Under the pieces are notes generated by a model, which saw nothing but the letters and a program-made list of their open reading frames with translations, made no database searches and was not told where the DNA came from. A DNA stretch of 64,000 bases from the IMG/VR virus record IMGVR_UViG_3300021431_000016, positions 1,906 through 65,905 of that record; one strand, given 5' to 3'. This document shows positions 6,001-56,496 of this stretch, in pieces. The translations under genes were made by a program, and so were the position numbers. Within the stretch, counting starts at the first letter, position 1, and each line of letters opens with the position of its first letter. Source of the DNA: a virus (taxonomy: Duplodnaviria > Caudoviricetes).

Positions 6001-7300
6001 ATGGGTAGAAGGTCTGCCTACAGGCGACATGCTCAGCGAGGGAATGACGAATTGGGCTATGAACCTCATGGAAAGCGGCAATCCGTTTGGGGGGAAGAGT
6101 TTCTTTGAGTTTGACCCGGACCTGCTCACGGTGACGAGTGATGCCGTAAAGGTTACTAAATATCTTGAGGGGAAGAACCCGTTAAAGGGTGCGACTGCGT
6201 TTGTAAACCTCTTGGGGCAGATTTATACCGGCGTGAATCCAGAGACATTCACGGACGCAGGAGTAGCAATCTATGATGCTTGCAATGGCGACCCCAAGGT
6301 GGGGAATGAGGCGCTGATGTGTGTACTCCGTATCATGCAGTGCCCACAGTCACAGCTTGACCAGATGTATATCGACGAGCTGAAGATGTCGGCGCGTGAG
6401 GCGCAAAAACTCACTCCCGAAGAAGTTGCTCGCCGCTATGCGTATTACAAGGCGCACAAGGACACTCCTTACATGTGGTGGATGTATAACCAGGACAAGA
6501 AAGATGAGATAGTGAAGAAGTACGAAGGTGACTTCAACAAGAAACTCAACGAGGATGTGAAAAAGGCTGGCGGCACCCCCGAGGACTATCACGACCTGAT
6601 GGAAAGTTCTACCACCAACAAGGAACACGACAAGTACAAGAGCAAGGAGATAGACGCCCTTTCGGAGCAAGGCCCCGAAGCATTGATGAAGGCGTGGGAG
6701 AAGGAACGCAACAAAGGCGCTGCCGCCGACTACAAGTATATGAAGTCGTTGATGACGAGATACCAGAAAGACGTGTACGGCAAGGGCAAGACCCCCGACG
6801 ATGCAGACGAAGCAGAACTCTATCAAGAGACACATGGCGAGGACATTAAAGAACAGGCTCAGAAGATAGGCCGTGACCTGGGTTTCGGTGCCCAGGACTC
6901 CTACTTCCAGCTGTCGCACTACAAGGCACAGCACACGTCGGCGAAAGACCCTGTGATGAAGGAATTCAAGGGCACTGATGCGGAATTCAAATACTCCAAA
7001 GACGGCAAGTTTTACAAGATGGAGGATTATAACTATAAAGTGCCTGTCAAAGACCCAGCGAAGCGCGCGAAAGCCTTGAAGGTCATAAAAGGCCACAAAG
7101 AAGAGCTTCGGCGCAACTATCGAAACGGTTGGCGCATGGCAAAGATTAAGGCCCTGTACAAGGACATCGAAGCCGAGTCGCTGAAGAAAGAGCGCGACTA
7201 TGACAAGATGAAGGCCCATTTCGCTGAGATCATCCAGATTCTTGAAGATGAGCGCAAGGACGCTGCCGAGTGGGAGAAGAAGCACCCAGCCAAGAAATGA
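2..7300 (+). CDS. Giant polyvalent virion/ejection protein, 5'-truncated (zincin metallopeptidase, ADP-ribosyltransferase-like domain, long helical C-terminal region)
   Basis: Frame is open from base 2 (NGGLKAGEDKW precedes the ORF-track Met), so the true start is upstream of the window. HEGVAH(H) zinc motif at about 1907-1927 with downstream EEYLA. ART-like block (FKDWFG..MSHNT..GFNFS..YLDARNP..GFDS..VVFDTTQIKS..NNGDF) at about 2430-3075. Pro-rich linker at about 3170-3260. Confidence 0.8.
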   Translation, partial: NGGLKAGEDKWMGLSQWLEDNKGKSLTKEEVQQFIADNGIEMEETTYSEAPQSFDSLKREYDQWLHDEGFDYAQEQLRGRFGDEADIAFDDLGGELVIANEEAAAALLGSDDIINQTRLDYTTEGLENKREIAFVVPGVEPYQENDAVHFGPENEGRAVMWVRFGETTDKDGNRVLVIDEIQSNRHQDAREKGYKENPFDNQYRLAKERFEQYIKFLDEKYGGKATPEDLNPEERAKVLELSREKGRLNNARIAQNEENWRNKKVPSAPFEKNWHEVAMKRMLRLAAEEGFDKVAWTTGEQQAERYGIGGVVESITKGKTRGENTLVSVQYKNGKHDSWVVATDGKVVDGGITTGENLSDLIGKELSEKVISLDENGSIEGDGLRIGGEGMKGFYDQMLPRFMDKYGKRWGVKTGTVELPNVEEAGRTMHSVDVTPEMKESVMQGQPLFRQKEPMGERGVKKVTVVSEPEYREGTDYFGRPMTHRVRPGQYKVEGYDDIFNSVEEVADFMRKKNPDYCVYIDEDGNIGYETWSNILPEGMKPNTYAKILASNGGKLSSAMRKRIERYTQREMQQARVRAEEITKELGLDVEFHDDPSEFTGRKAKAKGWYDPKTGKIHIVMGNHSGVSDVMATMLHEGVAHHGLRKLFGEDFDTFLDNVHNNVSEDIRTDINDRIEKMRTADEKNNVTRSDDYYRRAATEEYLADLAEDGLYNGEKNTGYASRAWQWIKENFINMLRKAGINIELSDDELRYILWSSHKNLRRGAEAMAEDAVMREKAGIKDYVEDGEPVRTVAENNVRYGDEEAMRKQQESKNFKDWFGDWENDPEHSSKVVDKDGRPLIMSHNTSNEFYTFDRERIGTGQGQAYLGVGFNFSRTGNGVYGNNEMKVYLDARNPLESDGHKLTRRDVESVLRQLDEGQSDTIAAEFAGEYAPYGSAEYNRALRKAVQNLMDNDDLGIVGSISVVAGTARANDIIDAFKKLGFDSTIEKDNDGRIMNAVVFDTTQIKSATDNNGDFSRENPDIRFRDGEEEATPANDLAARLRERMRERMERARAAAGGAEPPVEPPTPPAPATPEPAPELPPTGYDRPMTPIEMAQEAAIKAVADTKANLEQRNTARRELDASLKNLHKAMRLQKEYDRATVENVVTLAKMMVKSGLIDRRYISNLTPLFTKLKDATGKEDLTSTVNGIMDVMLKSQERSIRNELAKLMKVTGTKVDENGVVKQAGLDIRGQHTMQELSEYMNKGSKIIDKRIERLEEMRSRIPEDSTDRLNEIDDKILGCQLAKQYSEIEETHGVNISEAEGDLDFLKERYKSGEMGIKEYTEQKHALENLIRSYRMSQVDALWNQIKAIHWVITDSKEDSRNWIEQQKEHKGEILHDAYSDMQGVPSYTQGDNTKMQEIANSALPKFFSSSLFTLQTMLKSLGNKHALGEGYSYNRFFRGWMENRDAEITEYRDDMKTLNAKARELTGHSYFGIYNMIQKLPKMTVDYYDGGEMRPHDLDQGQLGYAYMVNKMEDGAAALRNMGITEEKMQEIANFLDPNLKRFYDWLQDDFLAGKWDGMNEVHKRLFGADMDRVENYIPLIRDREAGIQKVDISQEGETPLQSTVVGSVIQRVHSNLGVDLKHSNAIDVVANHLLEATHWKHFSEWKRDSNTLLSDTKFRNKVKNSTTIYGSGKILWERLNQVFQIAGGDYKPSAKSSSIDKAIVDMARTVNTAKVSLRVFTATKQLLSLPVFATECNPAILMKNLAFLLSPNKTSGDATQNSFVWCIENLPQFRERWVSRIAGETRLENGDLGWGYSRQKVLEAAARVGLTPNAFIDACTVAAGAKSIYEKRFAQYKKDGFSEEKADHKAKIDAEIAFNESQQSSEKAFVSPIQVDRTAVALGLSTFRNASMGYERKFVDSIKTFRHLTDHKETVEFMKKQLVREGLTETQAKDAAERMYRRALWRSTLNFLMFGFGAQMAWNVGGKLPYLIFGDDDEEKKKIVNEAAVHAGIGGWVEGLPTGDMLSEGMTNWAMNLMESGNPFGGKSFFEFDPDLLTVTSDAVKVTKYLEGKNPLKGATAFVNLLGQIYTGVNPETFTDAGVAIYDACNGDPKVGNEALMCVLRIMQCPQSQLDQMYIDELKMSAREAQKLTPEEVARRYAYYKAHKDTPYMWWMYNQDKKDEIVKKYEGDFNKKLNEDVKKAGGTPEDYHDLMESSTTNKEHDKYKSKEIDALSEQGPEALMKAWEKERNKGAAADYKYMKSLMTRYQKDVYGKGKTPDDADEAELYQETHGEDIKEQAQKIGRDLGFGAQDSYFQLSHYKAQHTSAKDPVMKEFKGTDAEFKYSKDGKFYKMEDYNYKVPVKDPAKRAKALKVIKGHKEELRRNYRNGWRMAKIKALYKDIEAESLKKERDYDKMKAHFAEIIQILEDERKDAAEWEKKHPAKK

Positions 7301-23368: not shown

Positions 23369-23388
23369 ATTGTATAATTTTTAGATAG

Positions 23389-25989: not shown

Positions 25990-26038
25990 GGTGGCGTAAT
26001 ACTGGACTAAGGTAAGCGGTTCGACTCCGCACGCCGCC
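25990..26038 (+). ncRNA. tRNA-like half element (acceptor stem plus T-arm, no anticodon arm)
   Basis: GGTGGCG/CGCCGCC stem with GCGG-TTCGACT-CCGC arm; only 18 nt between the arms. Confidence 0.6.
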
Positions 26039-30834: not shown

Positions 30835-33800
30835 ATGAGTTGTCAGAATGACATGGAGAAAAGAAAAGAGACATTTGAGGAATATGGCATAAAGATTCCT
30901 TACAGACGGCGCAACGGAAATGTGAAGTGCGTCTGTCCCAACTGCAAGACATCGGGGCGCTCGCATCCCGAGGACAGGAGCCTGAGTGTGAATCTCGACA
31001 CAGGGCTGTGGCACTGCCACTACTGCGGATGGAGCGGAGCCCTGAAAGGCTATGAGGGACGTCGCCCAGAGAGGAGAAGAAACTACAACAAGCCCAAGCC
31101 CCTTGAGGAGCACGGCCTGAGCCAGAAGCTCATCAACTATTGCTCGTTAAGAGGCATATCCCTTGATACTCTCAAGGCAATGCACATCGCCGAGGGGCTG
31201 GAGTTCATGCCACAGGCGAACAAGGAGATGAACACTGTGCAGTTCCCCTACTTTCTTGAGGGCGAGCTGATCAACATCAAATACCGAACAGGCGACAAGA
31301 AGTTCAAGATGTGTGCAGGTGCTGAGCTCATTCCCTACAACATCGACGGTATCAAAGACAAAGACACGGCCGTGATAGTTGAAGGAGAGTGGGACGCGCT
31401 GAGCTTCATAGAGGCAGGCATCGACAACGTGGTGAGCGTTCCCAACGGCGCCAATGCAAACCTTGAGTGGCTGGACGATTTCCTGGAGGGGTGGTTCGAT
31501 GATAAGCAGACAATCTACATTGCCGTCGACAACGACGAGAAGGGCTTACTGCTGAGAGAGGAGCTTGTGCGTCGCTTCGGCGCAGAGCGGTGCATGGTTG
31601 TGGAGTGGTCGCAGGGCTGCAAGGACGCCAACGACCAGTTGAAGGAGTTCGGCAAGGAATCCCTGCGCAACTGTCTCACAGGCGCCCATGAAGTGAAGGT
31701 GGGCGGCATCTATTCCCTTTCCGACTACGAGAGCGAGCTTGACGCCATGTGGCGTCACGGCCTGCGGCGCGGCAAGACCATCGGCCATGAGAATTTTGAT
31801 AAGCTCGTGAGCTTCGAGACGAAGCGTCTTATGGTAGTTACAGGTGTGCCAGGCTGCCTTGACGGTGACAGCGCAGTGCTTATGTCTGACGGCACCACAA
31901 AGCCTATACGCGACGTTCAAGTCGGCGATGATGTTATGGCACTTGATAAAGACTATCGTCTCGTTACGCGCCCTGTAGTGACGAAATGGGACAGCGGAGA
32001 GAAGATGTGCTACAAGCTCACAACAAACAAGGGGCGCACGTTGATTGCCACAGGCGACCACAAGATACTTTCCTTTGACGGCATGAAGCCATTGAAAGAG
32101 TTGAAGGTGGGAGAGTTTGTCGGTTCGGCTGGTAATTATGACCCGTTTTATGGGAGCTATCTCACCGAAGACATGCTTAGACTTGTGGCGATATGGATAG
32201 CAGAAGGCAACAAGAGCCAGAACACCTACATCGTGAGCAACGGCAACCCTAAAATCGTTGAGCTGATGCAGGAAATCTGCGAGAGGAACTGCCTCAATTT
32301 CCACCACGGCGCAAAATATGAGTACATCATATCTACTCGCAAGCCATTGAAGTGTGACCGCAAGAGATATATTAGCTCCATGTCATACTATTTCAGGCAG
32401 AAGCTCGGCGTAGATACAGAGGCCTCTATCAAGATGGCCTCCGAGAAGTATGAGAAGAAGATGGCCGAGGGGTTAAGTGCTTTTAATCCTATGGAGATTA
32501 TAAAGCGCTTGGGGTTCAAAGGCTCAACCACAAACTCCTTGTTTGTGCCAGATGAGATAAAGAGGATGCCCAATGACAGTGTGGCCCTGTTCTTGAATGT
32601 GCTGTTCTCCTGTGACGGGTGTATCAGCACACAAGGCATTGAGTACAGCAGTAACAGCCAGCATCTGTGCCGCGACATTCAAGACATGCTCGCAAGGTTC
32701 GGTATCAATGCAACAATACACCATAAGAGCGTGAAGTATAATGGCACAACAAGAGACCATTATGTCCTTAATGTTTATCACTACTCTGGCGTTTTTGACT
32801 TTGCCATAAAGATTGGGCTTGTGGGACATACGGAGAAGCTGAAACGTTATCTGCAAGAACATTGTGAGGCATACAGAGGAGATTATCTCCCTGCTTCATG
32901 TAAGGATTTGCTGCCTCATGGCGACAAGTACTACAAGGAGGCCCTCGGCTTCACAATCGGCAAGAACTCTACCGACAAGAAAAGAGTGAGCAGAAAGAAG
33001 ATTGTCGAGATAGCAAGGCTCGAATGTATGACGGACTTGTTTTACAAGACGACAGGCTCCTGTATGTGGGAACAGGTCAAGAGCATTGAGGTTGTAGGCA
33101 TGCGACACACTTACGATATTCAAGTGGCAATAGACCATAACTTTGTGAGTAACAATATGTTAGTAAAAAATAGCGGGAAGTCGGAATTCATCGACGAGAT
33201 GGTGGTGAGGCTCAACGTTCGCTACGGTTGGAAGGCGGCGTTCTTCTCGCCCGAGAACCTCCCGATGAAGTATCATGCAAGCAAGATAATCGAGAAACTT
33301 ACAGGTAAGAAGTTCAGCGAGAACACGATGTCGGCTGTGGAGTATGAGGCCGCCAAGCACTACTACGCCTCGAACTTCAAGCACATATTGCCTGAAGAGA
33401 AATATACACTTGAAGCGATATTAGACAAGGCGAAATTCCTTGTACGCCGAAACGGCATAAAGGTCCTTGTGATAGACCCATACAACCGCATCGAGAGCGA
33501 CATAGGCACACAGAGCGAGACGAACTACATCTCCAAGATACTAGACCAGCTGACGAACTTCGCGCAGCGTAACGACGTGCTTGTGTGCCTCATGGCGCAC
33601 CCCCGCAAGATCAACAGGAGCGAGAACGCTGATGGCATACCAACGTTCTACGATATCAACGGCTCGGCGAACTTTTACAACAAGGCTGACTTTGGTCTGA
33701 TAGTGCACCGCAACCGCGACGAGGGCTATACCCTTGTGAGGGTGGCGAAAGTGAAGTTCCGACACCTGGGAGAGAACGGTGACGCCCTGTTCAAGTACAA

Positions 33801-33972
33801 CACCGAGAACGGCCGCTACACTCCATTTGTGGAGGGCCAACCGTGCGTGTTTGACAACAGGAGCTATATCATGGATGGAGAAAGCGCGCCCCATGTGCAA
33901 CATGAGACGGCGCCACCAGAGAGTAACTATAATTTTTTAAGTGACGTGGGCGATGGATATTGCCCATTCTGA
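30835..33972 (+). CDS. Primase-helicase (T7 gp4/Twinkle-like) interrupted by an intein
   Basis: Zn ribbon (CPNC..CHYC), TOPRIM (EGEWDA, DNDEKG, CKDAND), split Walker A GVPG|SGKS, VIDPYN, AHPRK, KVKFRHLG. Confidence 0.92.
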   Translation: MSCQNDMEKRKETFEEYGIKIPYRRRNGNVKCVCPNCKTSGRSHPEDRSLSVNLDTGLWHCHYCGWSGALKGYEGRRPERRRNYNKPKPLEEHGLSQKLINYCSLRGISLDTLKAMHIAEGLEFMPQANKEMNTVQFPYFLEGELINIKYRTGDKKFKMCAGAELIPYNIDGIKDKDTAVIVEGEWDALSFIEAGIDNVVSVPNGANANLEWLDDFLEGWFDDKQTIYIAVDNDEKGLLLREELVRRFGAERCMVVEWSQGCKDANDQLKEFGKESLRNCLTGAHEVKVGGIYSLSDYESELDAMWRHGLRRGKTIGHENFDKLVSFETKRLMVVTGVPGCLDGDSAVLMSDGTTKPIRDVQVGDDVMALDKDYRLVTRPVVTKWDSGEKMCYKLTTNKGRTLIATGDHKILSFDGMKPLKELKVGEFVGSAGNYDPFYGSYLTEDMLRLVAIWIAEGNKSQNTYIVSNGNPKIVELMQEICERNCLNFHHGAKYEYIISTRKPLKCDRKRYISSMSYYFRQKLGVDTEASIKMASEKYEKKMAEGLSAFNPMEIIKRLGFKGSTTNSLFVPDEIKRMPNDSVALFLNVLFSCDGCISTQGIEYSSNSQHLCRDIQDMLARFGINATIHHKSVKYNGTTRDHYVLNVYHYSGVFDFAIKIGLVGHTEKLKRYLQEHCEAYRGDYLPASCKDLLPHGDKYYKEALGFTIGKNSTDKKRVSRKKIVEIARLECMTDLFYKTTGSCMWEQVKSIEVVGMRHTYDIQVAIDHNFVSNNMLVKNSGKSEFIDEMVVRLNVRYGWKAAFFSPENLPMKYHASKIIEKLTGKKFSENTMSAVEYEAAKHYYASNFKHILPEEKYTLEAILDKAKFLVRRNGIKVLVIDPYNRIESDIGTQSETNYISKILDQLTNFAQRNDVLVCLMAHPRKINRSENADGIPTFYDINGSANFYNKADFGLIVHRNRDEGYTLVRVAKVKFRHLGENGDALFKYNTENGRYTPFVEGQPCVFDNRSYIMDGESAPHVQHETAPPESNYNFLSDVGDGYCPF
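31855..33171 (+). mobile_element. Intein (439 aa) with LAGLIDADG homing endonuclease
   Basis: Starts CLDGD after PG, has TGDHKIL block B, LAGLIDADG-like IWIAEG and LFSCDG, ends YDIQV..HNFVSNNMLVKN before the Ser +1. Confidence 0.9.
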
Positions 33973-50199: not shown

Positions 50200-50227
50200 G
50201 TTTATTGGGAAGAAATGTATACCTTTG
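50197..50227 (+). promoter_or_regulatory. Consensus Bacteroidetes promoter with no downstream ORF
   Basis: TTTG (50197-50200), 19 nt, TACCTTTG (50220-50227). Confidence 0.7.
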
Positions 50228-50230
50228 TAG

Positions 50231-50297
50231 TGTAATTTTTAGATAGTGCCCCGGTTGGGCACAAAAAAAGGACGACCTGTGAAGGCCGTCCTTTCTT
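50231..50297 (+). ncRNA. Candidate ~65-nt trans-acting antisense sRNA
   Basis: Begins just after the promoter with TGTAATTTTTAGATAG, then a GTGCCC/GGGCAC hairpin, then a terminator hairpin. Confidence 0.55.
50263..50297. terminator. Bidirectional terminator closing the leftward operon
   Basis: A7-GGACG..CCT-GTGA-AGG..CGTCC-TTTCTT. Confidence 0.75.
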
Positions 50298-50308
50298 ATG
50301 GGCAGATG

Positions 50309-50527
50309 TCATTTCCATTTGACCGACAACCGGCATCCAAGTCCGTCAACGATGCGGACAATGTTCTCAAGTGACACGTTGCCGCCGTTCTCAAGCCGCA
50401 GCACTGATGGGTGGCTCATCCCTGCCTTTTCGGCGAGTTTGCGGGCGCCCCACCCTTTTTGCTGGCGTCGCTCTCGTATGAGCGCGCCGAACTCTTCCAT
50501 TGCTTTCTTTATTTCCTCTTCGTTCAT
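50309..50527 (-). CDS. XRE-family HTH protein (Aca-like position)
   Basis: LIRERRQQKGWGARKLAEKAGMSHPSVLRLENG. Confidence 0.85.
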   Translation of the reverse strand: MNEEEIKKAMEEFGALIRERRQQKGWGARKLAEKAGMSHPSVLRLENGGNVSLENIVRIVDGLGCRLSVKWK

Positions 50528-50892
50528 GGGATAATTATTTTTGCGCCGAGCGCGTTAAGTAACTTGTTTGCCACATCAATAGTGGGCGAGAAGCGCCCTG
50601 CTTCGATGTTGACGACTGTTGACTTGCTGACCCCTGCGAGTTCAGCGAGTTGTCTCACGGTGTAGCCTTTGGCGCGCCTGTGCTGTGCTATCTCATTGCC
50701 GATGCGCACCCTTGTTCGGTAAGGCTCGTCAAGCACGATGTCGTAGAGCGGGGTGATAGAGCCTACCTGTAAGTAGGCGTTGTTCTGTTCGTCCACCCAC
50801 ACGGCCTTACCGTAAGACGATGTGGGGTGTTCGGTAGTGGAGTGGACTTTGATTTCCTCTCCTGTGGATTTGATGATTAGTGTTGCTGTCAT
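50524..50892 (-). CDS. Two-domain protein with C-terminal XRE HTH
   Basis: IAQHRRAKGYTVRQLAELAGVSKSTVVNIEAG; N-terminal TTEHPTSSYGKAVWVD domain. Confidence 0.8.
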   Translation of the reverse strand: MTATLIIKSTGEEIKVHSTTEHPTSSYGKAVWVDEQNNAYLQVGSITPLYDIVLDEPYRTRVRIGNEIAQHRRAKGYTVRQLAELAGVSKSTVVNIEAGRFSPTIDVANKLLNALGAKIIIP

Positions 50893-51365
50893 AGTAATGT
50901 CAAATCTTCGCTAAAACATATAGTAAGTTCGCCGTTAGGAGTTTCGTAGATTGCATCAATATTATACTTGTCTGCATCGGCAAGGTCAAGTTTGACTGCG
51001 GCATTGGTATAGTCTCTTGCGGGTATCAGGCCGTAGGACTTGATAGTTTGCGCCACATCTTCGATACATGGCTCTTCTTCACAGATGAATGGGTCGCCGT
51101 TGTAGGTTGCTATACTATTGTAAACCTTTTGTTTAAGACTAACGAAGATAGCTTCATCTAAATACTCCTCAAGGATTTCGGCGTGACGGCGGTTTGCTTC
51201 ATATGCCTTGTTTCCTGTTATCTCTCCCTCGCTGTTGACGTGGAACGTCTCGCCGTATTCTTCCATAGTCTGCTCAAGAGCATCTTGCACCATGTTGTTG
51301 AGTTCGTCTAACAGGTCGTTCTCTCTTGCCTTTTGCTCAAGGCGAATGTAATCGGTTGTGTACAT
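50889..51365 (-). CDS. Acidic hypothetical protein
   Basis: Clean ORF with A-rich leader. Confidence 0.65.
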   Translation of the reverse strand: MYTTDYIRLEQKARENDLLDELNNMVQDALEQTMEEYGETFHVNSEGEITGNKAYEANRRHAEILEEYLDEAIFVSLKQKVYNSIATYNGDPFICEEEPCIEDVAQTIKSYGLIPARDYTNAAVKLDLADADKYNIDAIYETPNGELTICFSEDLTLL

Positions 51366-51377
51366 AGTTGTAAATGT

Positions 51378-51674
51378 TTAGAGTGTTCTACGATAGGTGT
51401 TGATGTCAATGTAGCGAATGCCTGTACGGCGCGTTTTGCGGTAGTTGTAGTCCATGAACTTGCCTTGGCTATGGGCATACCAACCAAAGCGACTTGCGCC
51501 CCTGTCGGTAGCGTGTTTCAAGAGCAGCTGCCTTGTATATCTGGGCATTTCAACCACCTCAAAGACATGGATGCAATAGTTGCCTTCGTTGAGGTCGCGG
51601 AAATACTTGCTCTTGTTACCTCTTACTTTGATTGGGAAATCTTTCCCAAGTGGATAAATCTCAAAAGTTGTCAT
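51378..51674 (-). CDS. Hypothetical protein
   Basis: ORF preceded by GGGGCAA hairpin copy A. Confidence 0.65.
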   Translation of the reverse strand: MTTFEIYPLGKDFPIKVRGNKSKYFRDLNEGNYCIHVFEVVEMPRYTRQLLLKHATDRGASRFGWYAHSQGKFMDYNYRKTRRTGIRYIDINTYRRTL

Positions 51675-51814
51675 AGTTCTGTTGCGGAATTTAGCGAGTT
51701 GCCCCCTCGCGAATTTGTTTGCAAAGATAGTGAAAGTTTTGAATGTACCAAAAGATTGGTACGGAAATTTTGTAGAGTGGGACAGGCTCGCCCTGTCCTT
51801 GCGCAGTCGTTAGA

Positions 51815-52018
51815 TTAGTGAATGAAATAAAGCCAATAGCCATCAATGTTGATTGTTTGGTCGTTGAGTGCATCGCTTAACTCCTCAAGGGTTAAAACTT
51901 GTGTCTCGTGTTCCTCGCCTCTCATAGCAAGTCCGTACAATTCGTACTCGTTCATTCGGTCAAGATTGTACCTGTCGTACTTGTCAATGTCGAATAATAA
52001 TGCTTTTGCCGCTTTCAT
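51815..52018 (-). CDS. Small acidic hypothetical protein
   Basis: ORF with TATCTAAAAATTACA leader. Confidence 0.65.
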   Translation of the reverse strand: MKAAKALLFDIDKYDRYNLDRMNEYELYGLAMRGEEHETQVLTLEELSDALNDQTINIDGYWLYFIH

Positions 52019-52064
52019 AATGTTGTAATTTTTAGATAAATAATTAAGTTGATTAACTCATTGT

Positions 52065-52108
52065 GGGGAGTGTTGGTATCGCTCCAACTGCGGTCATTCC
52101 TACTCCCC
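52065..52108 (-). ncRNA. tRNA-like half element E1
   Basis: GGGGAGT/ACTCCCC stem stacked on GTTGG-AGCGATA-CCAAC, 3' ACAA. Confidence 0.55.
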
Positions 52109-52115
52109 TGTGCCG

Positions 52116-53387
52116 TTATGCCACGGCTTTCAACAAGTGCATGTTGTCGTTGCACAGGGCAACAATCTCGTTGTGCTTGTCGGTATACTTGTTGCACACG
52201 CCACGCGACTGCATGACTTTGTAATGCTTGGTGTCAATCTCAATGGTCTCAAGACGCGCCCCTGTGTGCTTGTCGCGGGCAAACAATATGAGGGTGTCGG
52301 CCTCTTTGTAGTACTCGTTCGCGAAGACGCAATGGTGCATGTGCTTGCCCTCAAGGCGTATGTCCTCAACAGACTGGGCGACCTTAATCTCAATGTCCTC
52401 GTTGCCGAAATAGACAGAGAGGTATTTCTCATGCAACTTGCGGTAAATCTCTTCGTACCGCTTTGCCTTTTCTTTGTCGGCCTTTTCCTTTAACTTCGCC
52501 TTTGCTCGCTCCAAGCGGGCAGTTGTGCGCGTGTGCGCCTGTGACAGGTCGGACGGGCAGACGTAATGGGCGTTGTGGGTGTCAAGTCCTAACGCCTCTA
52601 AGTCGCGGATGTAGTCGCACCACTCATCGGCATTCTGCACGATGTAGTTGTTGCGGTTGCAGATGCGCACCGCATGAAGCGGTATGTCACTGCGGTATCC
52701 TCGGACGTGCCTTGCTACCAATGAGTGTTGCCCTGTCTTGAGGAGTTCCTCGGTGATGGGGTCGGTGAGCAGATGGGTGTAAAGCGACACAGGCGATGCG
52801 CCAATGTCCTTGCGGGTCGCTCCCTTGGTTCTAAGCACAGGGAGCAATGACTCCCATCGGTTGTACTGCGAGTAGATGTCATACTTGCCCCAACTCCTTG
52901 TATAGGGCGCGGGGTCGTGCTTGATGCTCATGGGAACTGAAAACACCCAAATATCGTAATACCATGAGTGCATATTGACAGGGCGCGCCATGATGGTGCG
53001 TTGCCCCTTTTCGTTTATCCACACCTGTACCGCCTCGTTGACTTGGTATTGTGTGGGTTTGCCCTTGCGGGCGGTGCGCCACACAACGAAATGGCGTGCC
53101 ACTTGATAACCTCTAAACGTGGTGTGGATGGTGGCGTAGTCCTTGCGGTCTTCGGTCGTGTAACGCGCGCTCTTGATGGTGTCAAACTGGCGCCCGCAAT
53201 GTGGACACGTTGTTGCCCCTGTCTCCATCACTCCACCACAGGACACACACCATTGTTGGTGCTTGGTGTGGTAGGCGGTGGCGGGGTTGGCGTTTCTCTT
53301 TAGTGCTCGCTCCTGTGTCTGTGTCAGGGCGGGCAAAAGAGGTGACAAGCTCGCCACTTCTTTCTCTGTTCTTGTCCTTGGTCTCAT
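52116..53387 (-). CDS. PcfJ-like protein
   Basis: Zn ribbon CVSC..CPHC; C-terminal EGKHMHHCV..Y..LILFAR..RLETIEI..QSRG..N. Confidence 0.85.
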   Translation of the reverse strand: MRPRTRTEKEVASLSPLLPALTQTQERALKRNANPATAYHTKHQQWCVSCGGVMETGATTCPHCGRQFDTIKSARYTTEDRKDYATIHTTFRGYQVARHFVVWRTARKGKPTQYQVNEAVQVWINEKGQRTIMARPVNMHSWYYDIWVFSVPMSIKHDPAPYTRSWGKYDIYSQYNRWESLLPVLRTKGATRKDIGASPVSLYTHLLTDPITEELLKTGQHSLVARHVRGYRSDIPLHAVRICNRNNYIVQNADEWCDYIRDLEALGLDTHNAHYVCPSDLSQAHTRTTARLERAKAKLKEKADKEKAKRYEEIYRKLHEKYLSVYFGNEDIEIKVAQSVEDIRLEGKHMHHCVFANEYYKEADTLILFARDKHTGARLETIEIDTKHYKVMQSRGVCNKYTDKHNEIVALCNDNMHLLKAVA

Positions 53388-53394
53388 GGCGCAA

Positions 53395-53871
53395 TCAACT
53401 GAATGGGTCAAACTCTGCGAAATCGGCAAATAAGTCCATTTGCTTGCTCTCTACAGGCTTTTTCGCCTTTGGTTGGGTTGTCGCCTTGGTGGGGGCAGCA
53501 GGCTTCGTTACAACGGCTTTCTTGGGCGCGGGTTGTGCCTTGGGCGCGGTCTTCTTGGGTTGCGCCTTGGCGGTCTTGTTGGTGTCCTCGGGTTTCTCCA
53601 ACTTGGTGTTAACGATGGTGCGCACATTCTTTACCTCTTTGAGGTCTTCCTGTGGCAACTCGGTTGCCTCGTAGTAGGTAACCGCCATGCCAAAAATCTC
53701 TGAGTCATCAAAACCGATGCGGTCGGTTTTGCGTACTTGGTTGAGGATGTAATAGCAACACTCCTCAACTGATTTGTCGGGGTTGTGGTACTTGAGAGCA
53801 AACTGCTCATCGTGCTTTGCGAGCGCGTCAAGATAGGCGCGGATTGCGATTTGGAAAATGTCATCTGTCAT
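53395..53871 (-). CDS. PcfK-like protein (family recalled to include the Cas9 inhibitor AcrIIA9)
   Basis: FQIAIRAYLD..DEQF..K..KSVEECCYYILNQV..GFDDSEIFGMAVTYY; Lys/Pro tail, QMDLF end; adjacent to pcfJ-like gene. Confidence 0.8.
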   Translation of the reverse strand: MTDDIFQIAIRAYLDALAKHDEQFALKYHNPDKSVEECCYYILNQVRKTDRIGFDDSEIFGMAVTYYEATELPQEDLKEVKNVRTIVNTKLEKPEDTNKTAKAQPKKTAPKAQPAPKKAVVTKPAAPTKATTQPKAKKPVESKQMDLFADFAEFDPFS

Positions 53872-53929
53872 AATGGTTCTACGGAATTTTAGGTGTTGCC
53901 CCCACCTCTATAGTTAGAAAAATAATTGT

Positions 53930-53974
53930 GGGTGCGGGAGTCGCGAACTCCCTGTCGGCTGAACCGAAGCACCC
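53930..53974 (-). ncRNA. tRNA-like half element E2
   Basis: GGGTGC/GCACCC stem, TCGG/CCGA arm, GGGAG-TTCGCGA-CTCCC arm, 3' ACAA. Confidence 0.55.
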
Positions 53975-53980
53975 TGCGCC

Positions 53981-54217
53981 CTAAAGGGCAATAGTGAGTT
54001 GTGTTGGCTCGTTGGTTAACAACGGCGCGAAATCAAAAAGCCAACCACGGAGCAGCACGCCTGTAGTGCCGTGCGCTATGTGGTTCTTGATGTAAGCGGT
54101 ATCGCGCTTGCTCGGTCGCTTGCCGTTCTCCCACAGGGCGAAACACAAGCGGTAAATGTCGGTATCACGCAACGTGTCAAGGCTCGGCACGTTGTCAGAA
54201 TATTGAACTACTCTCAT
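53981..54217 (-). CDS. Hypothetical protein (start re-set to MRVVQY)
   Basis: ATG 11 nt after the upstream stop. Confidence 0.55.
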   Translation of the reverse strand: MRVVQYSDNVPSLDTLRDTDIYRLCFALWENGKRPSKRDTAYIKNHIAHGTTGVLLRGWLFDFAPLLTNEPTQLTIAL

Positions 54218-54228
54218 AGCGGTAAGGA

Positions 54229-54585
54229 TTATGCGCCAAAACCTAACGCGGTTGCTACCTCTTTGCCCCTCTTCTTGCTGAAAATCCAGCCTGCGCCACA
54301 TTTTAGTTTGGGGTTGAATCGGCCACCCAATTTCTTGAGTTGCGCTTTGTGTGCCTTGGTGTCGCCCACGATGGCGAAAGCCTTTTCGCTATAGTCCACG
54401 AAGCGAAGCACAGGCTTCTCGGTGGTACGTTGCGCCGTCTCGGTCTCGGCGTGGAGATCTCCACCCTCGCCCCCGTCCTCGGTGGCTACAGGGGTGGCGT
54501 GGTCGCTTAAACGCGCCTTGCCTGTCTCCTTTAACTCGGTAAATAACCCCTCTACATTGACCTTTTGAATCGTTGCTTTACTCAT
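54229..54585 (-). CDS. Protein with VDYSEKAFA..GDTK..LGGRFN domain (seen in polyvalent and leading-region proteins)
   Basis: C-terminal motif VDYSEKAFAIVGDTKAHKAQLKKLGGRFNPKLKCGAGWIFS. Confidence 0.7.
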   Translation of the reverse strand: MSKATIQKVNVEGLFTELKETGKARLSDHATPVATEDGGEGGDLHAETETAQRTTEKPVLRFVDYSEKAFAIVGDTKAHKAQLKKLGGRFNPKLKCGAGWIFSKKRGKEVATALGFGA

Positions 54586-54708
54586 AGTTCGTTTGCAGAA
54601 TTTTTCGTGTTGCCCCCACGTTTAAAAGTTATTGCTACCCTCGCCCTGTGTGTAGGGCGAGACGCTCACGGCTTAAAGCCTGTTTTACATCGCCGTGACG
54701 ATGAAGGG

Positions 54709-54930
54709 TTAATCTTCAATTGCGATAGGCGAATCCTCTGCACCACACATTTTTGCACCATCTGCAAGTTTTTGTATCTCATCAATAGTCGTTTTATACA
54801 ATACAATAGTGTGGGAAGTATCACAGGTATAACGAACAAAGAACGAGTGGCGTGTAATGGTTAAATACCTTACCATTGCCAAAAAGTCATTGTAATAAGT
54901 GTATTTAACTTGATAGCCTTTTGTTTCCAT
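54709..54930 (-). CDS. Small hypothetical protein
   Basis: A-rich leader; resembles the neighbouring 54942-55163 product. Confidence 0.55.
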   Translation of the reverse strand: METKGYQVKYTYYNDFLAMVRYLTITRHSFFVRYTCDTSHTIVLYKTTIDEIQKLADGAKMCGAEDSPIAIED

Positions 54931-54941
54931 AGTCGTAAATG

Positions 54942-55163
54942 TTAGAATGTTAAGTAATCTGCTTCAACTCTAATAGGGAATTCCGTACCCCACATTTTTG
55001 CGCCCCGTGCGATTTTGTCGGCTTTGGTCTCATCAATGCCATCAATCATTATTCGCTCGGTGTCTCCATCATAGAAGAATGAAATTTGCATAGTAAGTAA
55101 ATGCTTTACTAATGCTCTGCGGTCTTGCATTGAACTCGCAATGAAATAAAATACAATGTCCAT
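54942..55163 (-). CDS. Small hypothetical protein
   Basis: TATCTAAAAAATTACG leader. Confidence 0.55.
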   Translation of the reverse strand: MDIVFYFIASSMQDRRALVKHLLTMQISFFYDGDTERIMIDGIDETKADKIARGAKMWGTEFPIRVEADYLTF

Positions 55164-55212
55164 AATCGTAATTTTTTAGATAGTTATTAATTAGGTTGGT
55201 TGTAATTGAGTT

Positions 55213-55257
55213 GTGGCGGGCGGTGTCGCTCCACCTTACAGGGTCTGCCCTCGCCAC
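55213..55257 (-). ncRNA. tRNA-like half element E3
   Basis: GTGGCG/CGCCAC stem, AGGG/CCCT arm, GGTGG-AGCGACA-CCGCC arm. Confidence 0.55.
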
Positions 55258-55265
55258 ATTGGGGG

Positions 55266-55508
55266 TTATTGTAACTCCTTAACTTTGATATAAAAATGGT
55301 GCGTGTTGCTTTTGGTCTCTATCCTGTAGCAATTTTCCATTTCCTCGCGCCCTTCCTTGAATGTCGGCAATTGCCTGTATTCTTCAATGATTTTGTTATA
55401 GGCTTCTTTGGCTTTCTTTGCGCTGCTATATGCGCCCACAATGGTAGTATATTCGCAACTTACATATTTAGCCAAATGCATCAATATGTGAACTCGTTTT
55501 ATAGCCAT
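55266..55508 (-). CDS. Small hypothetical protein
   Basis: IVGAYSSAKKAKEA pattern common in small phage proteins. Confidence 0.6.
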   Translation of the reverse strand: MAIKRVHILMHLAKYVSCEYTTIVGAYSSAKKAKEAYNKIIEEYRQLPTFKEGREEMENCYRIETKSNTHHFYIKVKELQ

Positions 55509-55511
55509 ATT

Positions 55512-55799
55512 TTAGGGGTTGTTTAATATATTATTATCTACTCGCAGAACTGAATCTACACTATCACAAGCGAACATAAAATCGTCCGTCTCGCTCCATG
55601 CGTCGTCCCAAACAACGTCAAGTTGCTTGGTTGTCATGTTGTAGTAGTCGTAGCCGTTGGCAATACACCACGCCCTGAAGCGAGGTTCAAGCATCTCTAA
55701 CTTTTGGTCGCGGTTGTGGTCTCGTTGGGATTGTATGCCCGCTACTAATGACGGCACACAGGGCGTGAGTAACGCCACAAGTAAAATTAATTTCTTCAT
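55512..55799 (-). CDS. Secreted or periplasmic hypothetical protein
   Basis: MKKLILLVALL signal-peptide-like N-terminus. Confidence 0.65.
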   Translation of the reverse strand: MKKLILLVALLTPCVPSLVAGIQSQRDHNRDQKLEMLEPRFRAWCIANGYDYYNMTTKQLDVVWDDAWSETDDFMFACDSVDSVLRVDNNILNNP

Positions 55800-55852
55800 G
55801 ATTGTAATTTTTAGATATTAATAATATTAGGGGGATTGCTCCCCCTGTGTGG

Positions 55853-56212
55853 TTAGTCCTCGTCTTGCTCTAACTCGTCTAACACTTGAGCTAAGCATTG
55901 ACCCAACAGGTAACAACGTATTGTTACATCACAGGCCTCTGCGCCAATCTTAAGCACGTCTATTTCCCCGCCAAACTCATCGCTTGCCTCTGCAAGTAAA
56001 TCTAAATTGTGGCAAAGATTCTCTTCTGCTTGGTAGGCGCTAAACGTGTAGCTACCACTCGCGTTTCCTGTAACTGAATCACTAACAAACAGGTCGTCAT
56101 AAAGTTCTTGGCATAAGTCCTCTTTGTTGTCGCTTGTAACTTTGATGTCGTTCTCGTTAATGTAGTCGCGAATGTCATTACTAACGGCTTTGTAATAATT
56201 ATATTTACTCAT
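55853..56212 (-). CDS. Highly acidic protein, possible Ocr-like DNA mimic
   Basis: 119 aa with 27 D/E against 7 K/R by hand count; first gene after the early promoter. Confidence 0.55.
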   Translation of the reverse strand: MSKYNYYKAVSNDIRDYINENDIKVTSDNKEDLCQELYDDLFVSDSVTGNASGSYTFSAYQAEENLCHNLDLLAEASDEFGGEIDVLKIGAEACDVTIRCYLLGQCLAQVLDELEQDED

Positions 56213-56270
56213 AATAATTGTGCTGAATTTTAAGTGTTGCCACCACTTTTAAAGTGAATAAAAAAGTAGT

Positions 56271-56317
56271 GGGTGTTGCGGTCTCGCTCCGCTCGTCTGC
56301 CGTTAGCAGATACACCC
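56271..56317 (-). ncRNA. tRNA-like half element E4
   Basis: GGGTGT/ACACCC stem, TCTGC/GCAGA arm, GCGG-AGCGAGA-CCGC arm. Confidence 0.55.
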
Positions 56318-56465: not shown

Positions 56466-56496
56466 CAAAGTTAGTGGTATTTTCGGTAATACCAAA
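56466..56496 (-). promoter_or_regulatory. Early leftward promoter with an operator-like palindrome in its spacer
   Basis: Minus strand TTTG-19 nt-TAACTTTG; TGGTATT-N6-AATACCA at 56475-56494. Confidence 0.75.

Follow-up and report, generated by a model that had tools for sequence, protein, structure and literature searches.

The closest described systems to the element reported here are the 5'-UTR motifs associated with Aca1 and Aca2 in acr-aca operons (Birkholz et al. 2024; Feussner et al., NAR 2026, PMC13551039). Both proteins bind hairpins in the 5'-UTRs of their own operons, the Aca1 motif being a single stem-loop that ends about 20 nt before the start codon, and in both cases the RNA motif is similar to a duplex DNA site and co-evolves with its protein (PMC13551039). 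Bacteroidota are not mentioned in that work (Feussner et al., NAR 2026, PMC13551039). The locus analysed here lies in a Caudoviricetes genome (IMGVR_UViG_3300021431_000016), of which a stretch of 64,000 nt, the window, was studied.

A hairpin leader in four copies

A 31-nt module occurs in four copies on the minus strand, each with a covarying stem of 4-5 bp, a GNGGCAA loop and a WAAAUUC tail, and each in front of a gene.

56221..56251, minus strand: leader copy 1, hairpin 56232-56248 (stem 56244-56248 with 56232-56236), loop GTGGCAA, tail AAAATTC; covariance model 44.6 bits
55853-56212, minus strand: gene behind copy 1 (ATG 56212-56210), a 119-aa orphan
54594..54624, minus strand: leader copy 2, hairpin 54606-54620 with a 4-bp stem; covariance model 52 bits
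54229-54585, minus strand: gene behind copy 2 (ATG at 54585), a 118-aa orphan
53880..53910, minus strand: leader copy 3, hairpin 53891-53907; covariance model 44.5 bits
53395-53871 (ATG 53871), then 52116-53387, minus strand: genes behind copy 3, PcfK-like and PcfJ-like
51683..51713, minus strand: leader copy 4, hairpin 51694-51710, canonical and directly behind a promoter; covariance model 41.6 bits
51378-51674, minus strand: gene behind copy 4 (ATG at 51674), 98 aa

A preliminary description of this DNA had reported four minus-strand hairpins with a conserved loop, compensatory stem changes and a fixed distance to the start codon, and all four were recovered with these properties. The loop is 7 nt long in every copy (GGGGCAA in three, GTGGCAA in one), and the (A/T)AAATTC tail is followed by an ATG 19, 20, 19 and 19 nt past the stem in copies 1, 2, 3 and 4, respectively. 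The compensatory changes reported there are all present: every loop is closed by G-C, the second pair can be A-U or U-A, and the fourth varies among C-G, G-C and A-U. Window and whole genome (65.9 kb) each contain the 17-nt pattern GGCAA-N5-WAAATTC exactly four times, on the minus strand in every case and within 4.6 kb, the chance expectation being about 0.02 on a rough estimate; four copies are far beyond chance. A covariance model search returned these four copies alone, at 42-52 bits, with the next match at 12 bits, and the module is absent from the late and structural genes of the phage. It matches no Rfam family (none in Rfam 15 overlaps the hairpins at E-values up to 10, even in searches of 161-281 nt) and no paper that we found.

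The covariation extends well beyond this phage. Among 54 distinct copies from many genomes, a set pre-filtered for at least three stem pairs, the second stem pair is C-G in 28, U-A in 25, A-U in one and unpaired in none, a covariation score reached by 0 of 500 shuffles, and the loop is 7 nt long in 53. The hairpins are thermodynamically weak, with fold z-scores that are not significant, and the hairpin of copy 1 is missing from its predicted minimum-energy fold; such weak stems fit a protein-stabilised site. Selection on a single-stranded structure, as had been claimed, is borne out by the covarying stem, the asymmetry of the conserved loop and the invariable use of the sense strand, and the data speak for a leader in the RNA, linked to the start codon, and against a site in the DNA.

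Mobile elements, promoters and regulators around the module

Viral contigs, together with genomes of Bacteroidota, Ignavibacteria and Balneolales, yielded about 70 further copies, all with the stem. The carriers are unrelated phages, prophages and a small Flavobacterium plasmid, where the module heads a two-gene unit; loop and tail are invariant among them and across orders from Bacteroidales to Ignavibacteriales. By count, the ATG stands 11-13 nt past the UUC in 67 of 69 further copies, despite differing spacer sequence. The module is shared by many Bacteroidota phages, prophages and plasmids, and host chromosomes scarcely carry it (three strong matches in 151 Bacteroidaceae genomes). The genes that it leads are diverse orphans, 8 of the 10 tested having no Pfam family, and the only domain matches among this cargo are PcfK, PcfJ and one free-standing MutS domain I; we regard the cargo as candidate anti-defence genes.

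The module usually follows a promoter. Of the 69 other copies, 56 have a TAnnTT[TC]G box 9-39 nt (median 20) upstream, 46 of these with a -33 TTG as well, and the usual promoter is of host type, TTTG..TAnnTTTG, with an inverted-repeat operator over the -33 box. At most loci there are palindromes of up to 10+10 nt that end 12-20 nt before the -7 box. The distance from promoter to module varies fourfold, and 6-30 nt of leader stand 5' of the hairpin. The DNA operators differ between module operons and do not track the stems; identical stems occur with different operators. In this phage such a promoter precedes copy 4 only, and the three other copies are preceded by RNA elements.

51722..51762, minus strand: host-type promoter of copy 4, TTTG (51749-51752), 19 nt, TATCTTTG (51722-51729), the layout seen in the 56 of 69 other copies
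51745-51762, minus strand: likely operator of copy 4, a perfect 7+7 inverted repeat over the -33 box
56466..56496, minus strand: leftward early promoter, TTTG, 19 nt, TAACTTTG, with an inverted repeat (56476-56493) between the boxes
56271..56317, minus strand: tRNA-like three-way element upstream of copy 1, with a 4-bp stem and 7-nt loop on which the outer stem stacks
54633..54703, minus strand: predicted pistol self-cleaving ribozyme between two early genes (Rfam RF02679)
53930..53974, minus strand: tRNA-like three-way element upstream of copy 3

The pistol match is full-length (model positions 1-68) and scores 68.1 bits against a gathering score of 34.5. Cleavage is predicted between G54638 and U54637, the GU linker standing at 54638/54637, and copy 2 starts 17 nt after this site. 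Copies 1 and 3 each begin 22 nt past their tRNA-like element, and no promoter box is found within 85 nt upstream of copy 1. Since copy 2 stands behind the ribozyme and copies 1 and 3 behind the tRNA-like elements, these three lie inside an operon, the leftward early promoter of which is separated from the first tRNA-like element by a leader of about 140 nt. The element at 56271-56317 has neither an Rfam nor an ARAGORN match and that at 53930-53974 has no Rfam match; both are presumed to be RNA processing sites. No terminators in the operon stand out beyond chance. Elsewhere, too, the module occurs inside operons with no nearby promoter (loci L133 and L043), and the ribozyme is missing from most natural copies. 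In many late genes of the phage the -7 box and the ATG are only about 9-12 nt apart, and the host thus appears to cope well with very short leaders.

Downstream of copy 4 the gene order is the 98-aa gene, a 158-aa gene and two genes for XRE helix-turn-helix (HTH) proteins.

50524..50892, minus strand: 122-aa protein with a C-terminal XRE HTH (Pfam HTH_3, 9e-13), a candidate trans-acting partner
50309..50527, minus strand: 72-aa XRE HTH, the last gene of the operon (Pfam HTH_3, 2e-11), a weaker member of the same HTH family

Two other viral contigs (L059 and L093) have a hairpin-led first gene whose product is about 50% identical to the 98-aa protein, and the 122-aa protein shares 34-48% identity with operon HTHs at more than 40 hairpin loci. 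An XRE HTH gene lies on the same strand within 2.5 kb at 32 of the 37 hairpin loci with enough sequence; at other loci it is divergent or about 4 kb away, and at some the hairpin-led gene is the HTH itself. Searching from the HTH side, we found the module 75-1350 nt upstream in 23 of 37 close relatives. Together with the membership of the phage's own 50524-50892 protein in this family, the 32 of 37 loci make the analogy to Aca2, drawn in the preliminary description, an apt one. The phage regulator supposed there, if taken as private to this phage, does not agree with a loop and tail that are invariant in unrelated elements phylum-wide while the operators differ.

The HTHs of module loci are only 30-45% identical to each other. 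A profile search of PDB chains with this family gave C.BclI, SinR, HipB, HigA and C.AhdI as the best matches, placing it nearest to restriction-modification controller proteins, SinR and HipB, and no chain named Aca is among the 60 matches listed of 71. The co-occurrence of module and HTH could reflect plain common descent of the platform. Two further observations are counterpoints to an HTH partner: loop and tail are invariant despite widely differing operators and HTHs of such low mutual identity, and the conserved bases lie in the loop, not in a duplex. Given an invariant loop and tail and differing DNA operators, a host-encoded partner is equally open.

A putative leader operator and its alternatives

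We tentatively favour, at somewhat below even chances, the hairpins being a cis-acting RNA leader operator at translation initiation, with the operon's own HTH as the likeliest partner. The module has a 4-5 bp stem of free sequence, the GNGGCAA loop and a single-stranded WAAAUUCYGCA tail, with the start codon 7-9 nt further on. It is part of a platform that is common in Bacteroidota mobile elements and runs from an inverted-repeat operator over the -33 box through a host promoter and the leader to one to several small orphans and a small XRE HTH autoregulator, the arrangement of acr-aca operons (anti-defence plus regulator). The module would act on the mRNA, at translation initiation of the downstream cistron, through a protein that sits on loop and tail, at about -41 to -12, and governs access of the 30S subunit. 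By the precedent of Aca2 and Aca1, this protein would most likely be the operon's own HTH, a partner that is plausible by analogy. In this phage the module has been multiplied, with one copy at the promoter of the HTH sub-operon and three within the long upstream early operon; as each of these three stands behind an RNA-processing element, we propose four translation units under one control. The motif, covariation, spacing, genomic company and distribution are observed, whereas an effect on translation, its sign and the partner involved are inferred.

It is possible, but on the unlikely side, that the module is instead directed at the host, the hairpin and tail recruiting or positioning the Bacteroidota 30S subunit, S1 or another conserved factor, or insulating the ribosome-binding region against RNA further upstream. 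It would then be a portable start signal where ribosomes ignore Shine-Dalgarno sequences, and an element-encoded protein would be unnecessary. Invariance of loop and tail from Bacteroidales to Ignavibacteriales fits a phylum-conserved partner, and the fixed ATG spacing, the variety of unrelated genes that the module fronts, its promoterless operon-internal sites (copies 1-3; L133 and L043) and the resemblance of the ribozyme and hairpin pair to the synthetic RiboJ insulator all speak for it, as does the lack of Shine-Dalgarno use in Bacteroidia (PMC6847099, PMC7797042). However, host chromosomes do not use the module (the three strong matches in 151 genomes), late and structural phage genes are without it, it is nearly confined to operons with one HTH family, no conserved complementarity of 16S rRNA to the module was found, and an invariant loop would be superfluous for a pure insulator. 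We consider it doubtful that the module is a phylum-wide Shine-Dalgarno substitute on mobile elements, read directly by the Bacteroidota ribosome or a universal host factor, with this phage as a natural 'RiboJ' array in which pistol and tRNA-like elements cut the long early transcript into units, each headed by this portable signal for translation.

A role in RNA processing or stability appears improbable. The hairpin would guide a host endoribonuclease to the AU-rich tail, or protect the message, to give a short leader of defined length. Enzymes of the RNase E type prefer RN↓WUU, which the tail fits as AA↓AUU, short late-gene leaders appear to work, and the module adjoins other processing elements; but the invariant loop is left unexplained, and the 6-30 nt of leader that precede the hairpin are atypical for 5' stabilisers.

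We think it very improbable that the module serves processive antitermination, as a site like nut (boxB) or put at which RNA polymerase is modified on its way out of an early promoter. Its place shortly downstream of early promoters and its recurrence behind every RNA cleavage element, where the polymerase would lose a tethered complex, would suit such a site, but the fixed ATG spacing would have no role, the loop has 7 nt instead of a GNRA-like pentaloop, the operon's terminators are not beyond chance, and the module also precedes a two-gene unit on a small plasmid. Apart from the tail, no boxA-like element is conserved up- or downstream, and a Flavobacterium rrn leader contains nothing similar.

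A DNA-level signal (a hairpin promoter of N4 or ssDNA type, a sigma-54-like promoter or a second operator) is hardly credible: GGCAAC and CTGCA faintly resemble -24 and -12 boxes and the tail takes the position of the late-gene -7 box, but the covariation and the asymmetric conserved loop do not suit a dimer operator, the module occurs on plasmids and prophages, a canonical promoter stands just upstream of most copies, and the invariant C of the TTC never drifts toward the TTTG consensus. The large ORFs hold no phage RNA polymerase domain. A sigma-54 promoter was rejected on spacing, the GG-to-GC separation being 16 nt in every copy and 10 being required.

Translation start without Shine-Dalgarno sequences in Bacteroidota and the timing of early and anti-defence genes in their phages and plasmids are both poorly understood. 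Being only 31 nt long, with sharp sequence rules and a range from gut Bacteroides phages to environmental Flavobacterium plasmids, the element offers an easy experimental handle. Binding by the operon HTH would extend Aca-style dual control of DNA and RNA to a new phylum and a new HTH family, and the module could then mark, through guilt by association, hundreds of unknown candidate anti-defence genes. Should a host factor bind it, the module would represent a new way of recruiting ribosomes and would supply Bacteroides engineering with a ready-made expression part. The phage also provides a clean natural setting for the pistol ribozyme, a class whose role is still open, between two cistrons and just upstream of a leader that is probably regulated.

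Comparison with known systems

The promoters of the N4 virion RNA polymerase and the ssDNA promoters of plasmids are, like the module, hairpins with covarying stems near early-gene starts. They work as DNA elements ahead of +1 and depend on a dedicated polymerase or on a long fold that mimics a promoter. The comparison with ssDNA promoters, raised in the preliminary description, fails on anatomy; here a host promoter lies upstream and the element itself is transcribed. The parallel with lambda N and boxB, raised there too, breaks down in the same manner. Both are short hairpins of early transcripts with a purine-rich conserved loop and a free stem, but the boxB loop is GNRA-like and 5 nt long, boxA accompanies it and its distance to a start codon is not fixed, whereas the module has a 7-nt loop, no boxA partner and a fixed start-codon relation.

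RiboJ is a synthetic insulator in which a self-cleaving ribozyme and a hairpin precede the ribosome-binding site, and copy 2 repeats this order, with the pistol ribozyme, 17 nt, the hairpin, a leader of fixed length and the ATG. The likeness is a design analogy only, as most natural copies are without the ribozyme and the loop is constrained in sequence. In the operators of the MS2 and PP7 coat proteins and the T4 RegA sites, hairpins include or abut the start codon of one phage gene. These resemble the module in being small hairpins near a start codon with a sequence-specific loop, and there the bound protein blocks initiation; the module, in contrast, ends 19-20 nt upstream and is common to unrelated genes and elements.

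Like this locus, acr-aca operons have a promoter overlain by an inverted-repeat DNA site, a hairpin just past the transcription start, small variable cargo and a terminal HTH autoregulator, and the Aca1 motif is likewise one short stem-loop whose stem covaries and which stops about 20 nt short of the first start codon. Copy 4 has the acr-aca position between transcription start and first ATG, whereas copies 1-3 are internal. The host phylum differs, and the HTH is no recognisable member of a named Aca family by its PDB matches (60 listed of 71). Unlike in the Aca motifs, the conserved bases are in the 7-nt loop and the single-stranded tail and not in the stem, the module gives no sign of co-variation with operator or protein, and it is repeated four times, three of the repeats being operon-internal behind RNA-processing elements.

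The hairpin leaders of the window and their covariation

Re-reading of the sequence placed the four minus-strand hairpins of the preliminary description at the positions claimed for them, with loops, tails and ATG distances as reported. Each hairpin forms, with its tail, a leader module of about 31 nt upstream of an ATG, and the copies are numbered as follows.

56232-56248, minus strand: hairpin of copy 1
54606-54620, minus strand: hairpin of copy 2
53891-53907, minus strand: hairpin of copy 3
51694-51710, minus strand: hairpin of copy 4

The pattern GGCAA-N5-WAAATTC occurs four times in the whole genome, all at these hairpins, and a covariance model built on the motif scored the four copies at 42-52 bits and nothing else in the window above 12. 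The stem changes among them are indeed compensatory, as had been proposed, with a second pair of A-U or U-A, a fourth pair of C-G, G-C or A-U, and a loop-closing pair that is always G-C. Fold energies of the hairpins were not better than those of shuffles, the ~200-nt leader 5' of copy 1 showed no significant fold, and Rfam 15 has no family at the hairpins.

The consensus of ~70 copies from all sources starts with WAGAA and continues with a 4-pair stem (5 pairs in some copies), the loop GNGGCAA, WAAAUUCYGCA, 7-9 variable nucleotides and AUG. Among 54 distinct copies the closing pair is G-C in every one; the second pair is C-G in 28, U-A in 25 and A-U in 1, with no mismatches; the third is G-C in 50, C-G in 3 and G-U in 1; and the fourth is A-U in 29, C-G in 10, G-U in 4 and G-C in 2, with 9 unpaired, while the fifth position is paired in just 21. 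Neither the covariation score nor the percentage of paired cells of the real copies was reached in any of 500 shuffles, and sliding the partner column by 1-3 positions destroyed the signal. These 54 copies had been kept only if they had at least 3 stem pairs, so that the clean split of the unfiltered scans described below is the fairer argument for structure. The loop variants found (GUGGCAA, GCGGCAA, GGGGUAA and one 6-nt loop) indicate that only loop position 2 is free. A putative pseudoknot between a GC of the loop and a GC of the tail is a weak candidate, with 2-3 pairs at most and variants that are uninformative.

Distribution and position relative to the start codon

The module is not confined to this phage and was found in other viral contigs and in genomes of Bacteroidota, Ignavibacteria and Balneolales. 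Viral contigs were scanned with a pattern that fixed the loop and tail and nothing else; this gave 95 matches, ~29 of which also have 4-5 consecutive stem pairs (~2 expected by chance), and in each of these ~29 an ATG 7-9 nt after TGCA opens a complete small ORF. The prokaryotic scan, with one genome per species, gave 84 matches that split cleanly. Stem and ATG are present in 40 (41 including one truncated by the locus end), all from Bacteroidota, Ignavibacteria or Balneolales, including Bacteroides, Prevotella, Parabacteroides, Flavobacterium, Algoriphagus, Chitinophagales and Saprospiraceae; the remaining matches are ascribed to chance because they have no stem and come mostly from other phyla. 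The covariance model found only 3 strong copies in 151 Bacteroidaceae genomes, so the module is sporadic and carried by mobile DNA rather than by core host genes. A blastn search of one 38-nt copy against GenBank phages and PLSDB plasmids returned no match, a full-text literature search with five exact motif variants returned no paper, and a 2026 survey of RNA motifs linked to Aca proteins, the anti-CRISPR-associated HTH autoregulators of acr-aca operons, makes no mention of Bacteroidota (PMC13551039).

A -7 promoter box lies 9-39 nt (median 20) 5' of the stem in 56 of 69 distinct contexts, 46 of which also have a -33 TTG, and these boxes place the hairpin within the 5' UTR. In 67 of 69 copies the ATG follows UUC at a distance of 11-13 nt, with unrelated spacer sequences. 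A promoter distance that varies and an ATG distance that is fixed point to translation initiation, rather than transcription, as the probable site of action of the hairpin. The ribosomes of Bacteroidia dispense with Shine-Dalgarno pairing (PMC6847099, PMC7797042), thus the RNA that the 30S subunit needs to be open lies from about -20 onwards; the module spans about -41 to -12 relative to the start codon.

A need for a nearby 5' end was rejected, since the copies in two comparison loci (L133 and L043) are internal, directly after a stop codon, and have no processing element. An invariant loop would be superfluous in a plain 5' stabiliser, and other genomes have copies directly after a stop codon. 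A boxB site, to which the hairpins had been compared, would have a loop of 5 nt and a boxA partner and would show no set distance to the ATG, and no boxA-like similarity to an rrn leader was found. A hairpin promoter, also considered earlier, would need its own polymerase, none of which was found among the large proteins of the phage, and a host promoter already lies upstream. A dimer operator is at odds with the asymmetric loop and covarying arms, and a sigma-54 promoter with a spacing of 16 nt, not the required 10.

The early block of the phage

The 65.9-kb viral genome, of which the window represents bases 1906-65905, bears direct terminal repeats and encodes an integrase, a CI-like repressor and T7-like internal virion proteins. 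Its sole DNA match, a weak one, is to a Bacteroides phage, the runs listed for its sample are gut metatranscriptomes, and Bacteroidetes-type promoters (TTTG, ~19 nt, TAnnTTTG) are seen throughout the window. The primase-helicase (Toprim and DnaB-like; 30835-33972, plus strand) is split by an intein with a LAGLIDADG endonuclease domain. A 2421-aa polyvalent protein (35-7300, plus strand) has an ART-PolyVal ADP-ribosyltransferase domain and, with the genes of PcfK (53395-53871) and PcfJ (52116-53387), makes up a gene set typical of conjugative elements. In several late or structural genes (e.g. starts 10950, 18808, 43265 and 20445) the -7 box is only ~9-12 nt 5' of the ATG, which implies very short leaders, and strong GGAGG-like sequences, unusual for a Bacteroidota host, occur at a few other genes (26910, 34545, 18443, 35611 and 35812).

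The hairpins sit within a leftward block of small genes (50309-56212, minus strand), with the following further elements.

56466-56496, minus strand: leftward early promoter
54633-54703, minus strand: pistol ribozyme
56271-56317, 55213-55257, 53930-53974 and 52065-52108, minus strand: tRNA-like elements between cistrons
55802-55816, 52023-52037 and 23372-23386, minus strand: second class of leader (ATCTAAAAATTACAA; ATG 2-6 nt further on), heading other early genes and int
50230-50244: site grouped with the second leader class

Only copy 4 has the canonical setting in the window, with a perfect 7+7 palindrome over TTTG, 19 nt, TATCTTTG, 11 nt and the hairpin, followed by genes of 98 aa and 158 aa and then two HTH genes. 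The 98-aa protein is ~50% identical to the product of the hairpin-led first gene in two other contigs. No promoter box was found within 85 nt of copies 1-3. Copy 2 begins 17 nt past the predicted cleavage site, between G54638 and U54637, of the pistol ribozyme, which is full-length (68 bits) and lies between two early genes; this position gives the pistol class a plain biological setting, the punctuation of mRNA between cistrons. No ribozyme was found beside the module in 12 other viral loci, only two c4-2 RNAs, so the ribozyme link is special to this phage. The c4-2 antisense RNA family matches lie in two related viral loci.

L012:1593-1669: c4-2 match
L028:4787-4863: c4-2 match

Copies 1 and 3 each begin 22 nt after a tRNA-like three-way element. 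These elements have an outer stem of 6-7 bp stacked on a stem of 4-5 bp with a 7-nt NNCGNNN loop, are followed 3' by A and then C-rich or A-rich sequence, and precede the next leader by ~22-35 nt. Related elements that share the AGCGACA loop are present in other viral contigs, which have HTH operons of the same type.

L199:667-708: tRNA-like relative
L205:1483-1525: tRNA-like relative
L211:246-288: tRNA-like relative

The elements look like RNase P or RNase Z processing sites; Rfam has no family at them and ARAGORN found no tRNA. A fifth tRNA-like element (25990-26038, plus strand) lies downstream of the repressor region and combines a textbook T-arm (GGTTCGACTCC) with an acceptor-like stem of 7 bp; instead of a processing signal it might be a tRNA fragment tied to the attachment site. 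The ribozyme and the tRNA-like elements of the early block thus seem to divide the long early transcript into units, four starting with the hairpin leader and three others with ATCTAAAAATTACAA, and a gene that has neither leader overlaps or abuts the one before it. On the plus strand (~50220-50297) the reverse complement of ATCTAAAAATTACAA directly follows a TACCTTTG box and is itself followed by a terminator, an arrangement that supports a small RNA, encoded at 50228-50297, that would be antisense to the ATCTAAAAATTACAA leaders and target them.

Operon company and proposed control of the module

Over the -33 boxes lie inverted repeats, as long as 10+10 nt and different from one element to another, and the hairpin-led genes are diverse small orphans. 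Of the 37 loci whose downstream sequence extends for 2.5 kb or more, 32 have a same-strand XRE HTH gene (~70-80 aa) after the module, usually as the second or third gene; elsewhere it is divergent or ~4 kb away. The operon HTHs form one coherent family. In the reverse test, 23 of 37 viral loci chosen by HTH alone have the module 75-1350 nt upstream, and in the others the operon start was out of range; a narrower alignment was used for this search, the broad HTH alignment being too diverse. This near-obligate tie to one HTH family argues for a functional link between module and HTH, and the layout of operator, strong promoter, hairpin leader, variable small genes and HTH is, in our analysis, that of acr-aca operons.

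A large subgroup of loci carries a 132-aa protein paired with an HTH. The protein falls into >900 sequence clusters and has no annotation and no Pfam family.

L114:1643-2316 and ~20 other genome loci: 132-aa protein and 80-88-aa XRE HTH, the HTH always next

The hairpin leader and an operator of the GTGCAATATATTGCAC type always come before its gene, and an identity of 80-100% across distant Bacteroidota marks the unit as a widely travelling module. On a Flavobacterium plasmid the pair lies between a Rep3 gene and an Eco47II restriction-modification system, upstream of the latter. The hairpin-led first gene of a Prevotella contig (L143:1849-2118) encodes a free-standing 90-aa MutS domain I, possibly a mimic or decoy protein. 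In another locus (L228) the rarely seen loop GTGGCAA matches exactly the inner half-site of the contig's own operator (TTGCCAC, taken as its reverse complement). In general the GGCAA of the loop is similar to the conserved core of the operators, which is the -33 TTTGC in reverse complement; this may be a hint of half-site mimicry, or else coincidence.

Our preferred reading is that the module would work as Aca control does on RNA. There, Aca2 occupies two hairpins of its own 5' UTR and blocks ribosome binding, Aca1 binds a single stem-loop just after the transcription start that ends ~20 nt before the start codon, and similar motifs are found in Aca10 and Aca12 operons (PMC13551039). However, the loop and tail never change, whereas the operators do and the HTHs are only 30-45% identical, and the conserved bases are in the loop, not in a duplex able to mimic DNA. 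Binding by a phylum-conserved partner, the ribosome or another host factor, would explain this invariance better, although it leaves unexplained that neither the genes of the hosts nor the late genes of the phage make use of the module. Complementarity of loop and tail to 16S rRNA (one Flavobacterium, one Bacteroides) amounted to only 6-8-nt matches in differing places, which, being scattered and non-conserved, were rejected as evidence. We rate the module as a leader hairpin that belongs to mobile-element operons under HTH autoregulation, in a phylum and with a sequence logic that are both new, and here unusually repeated and ribozyme-punctuated; among documented systems it comes closest to the RNA arm of Aca control, whose geometry and operon logic it matches.
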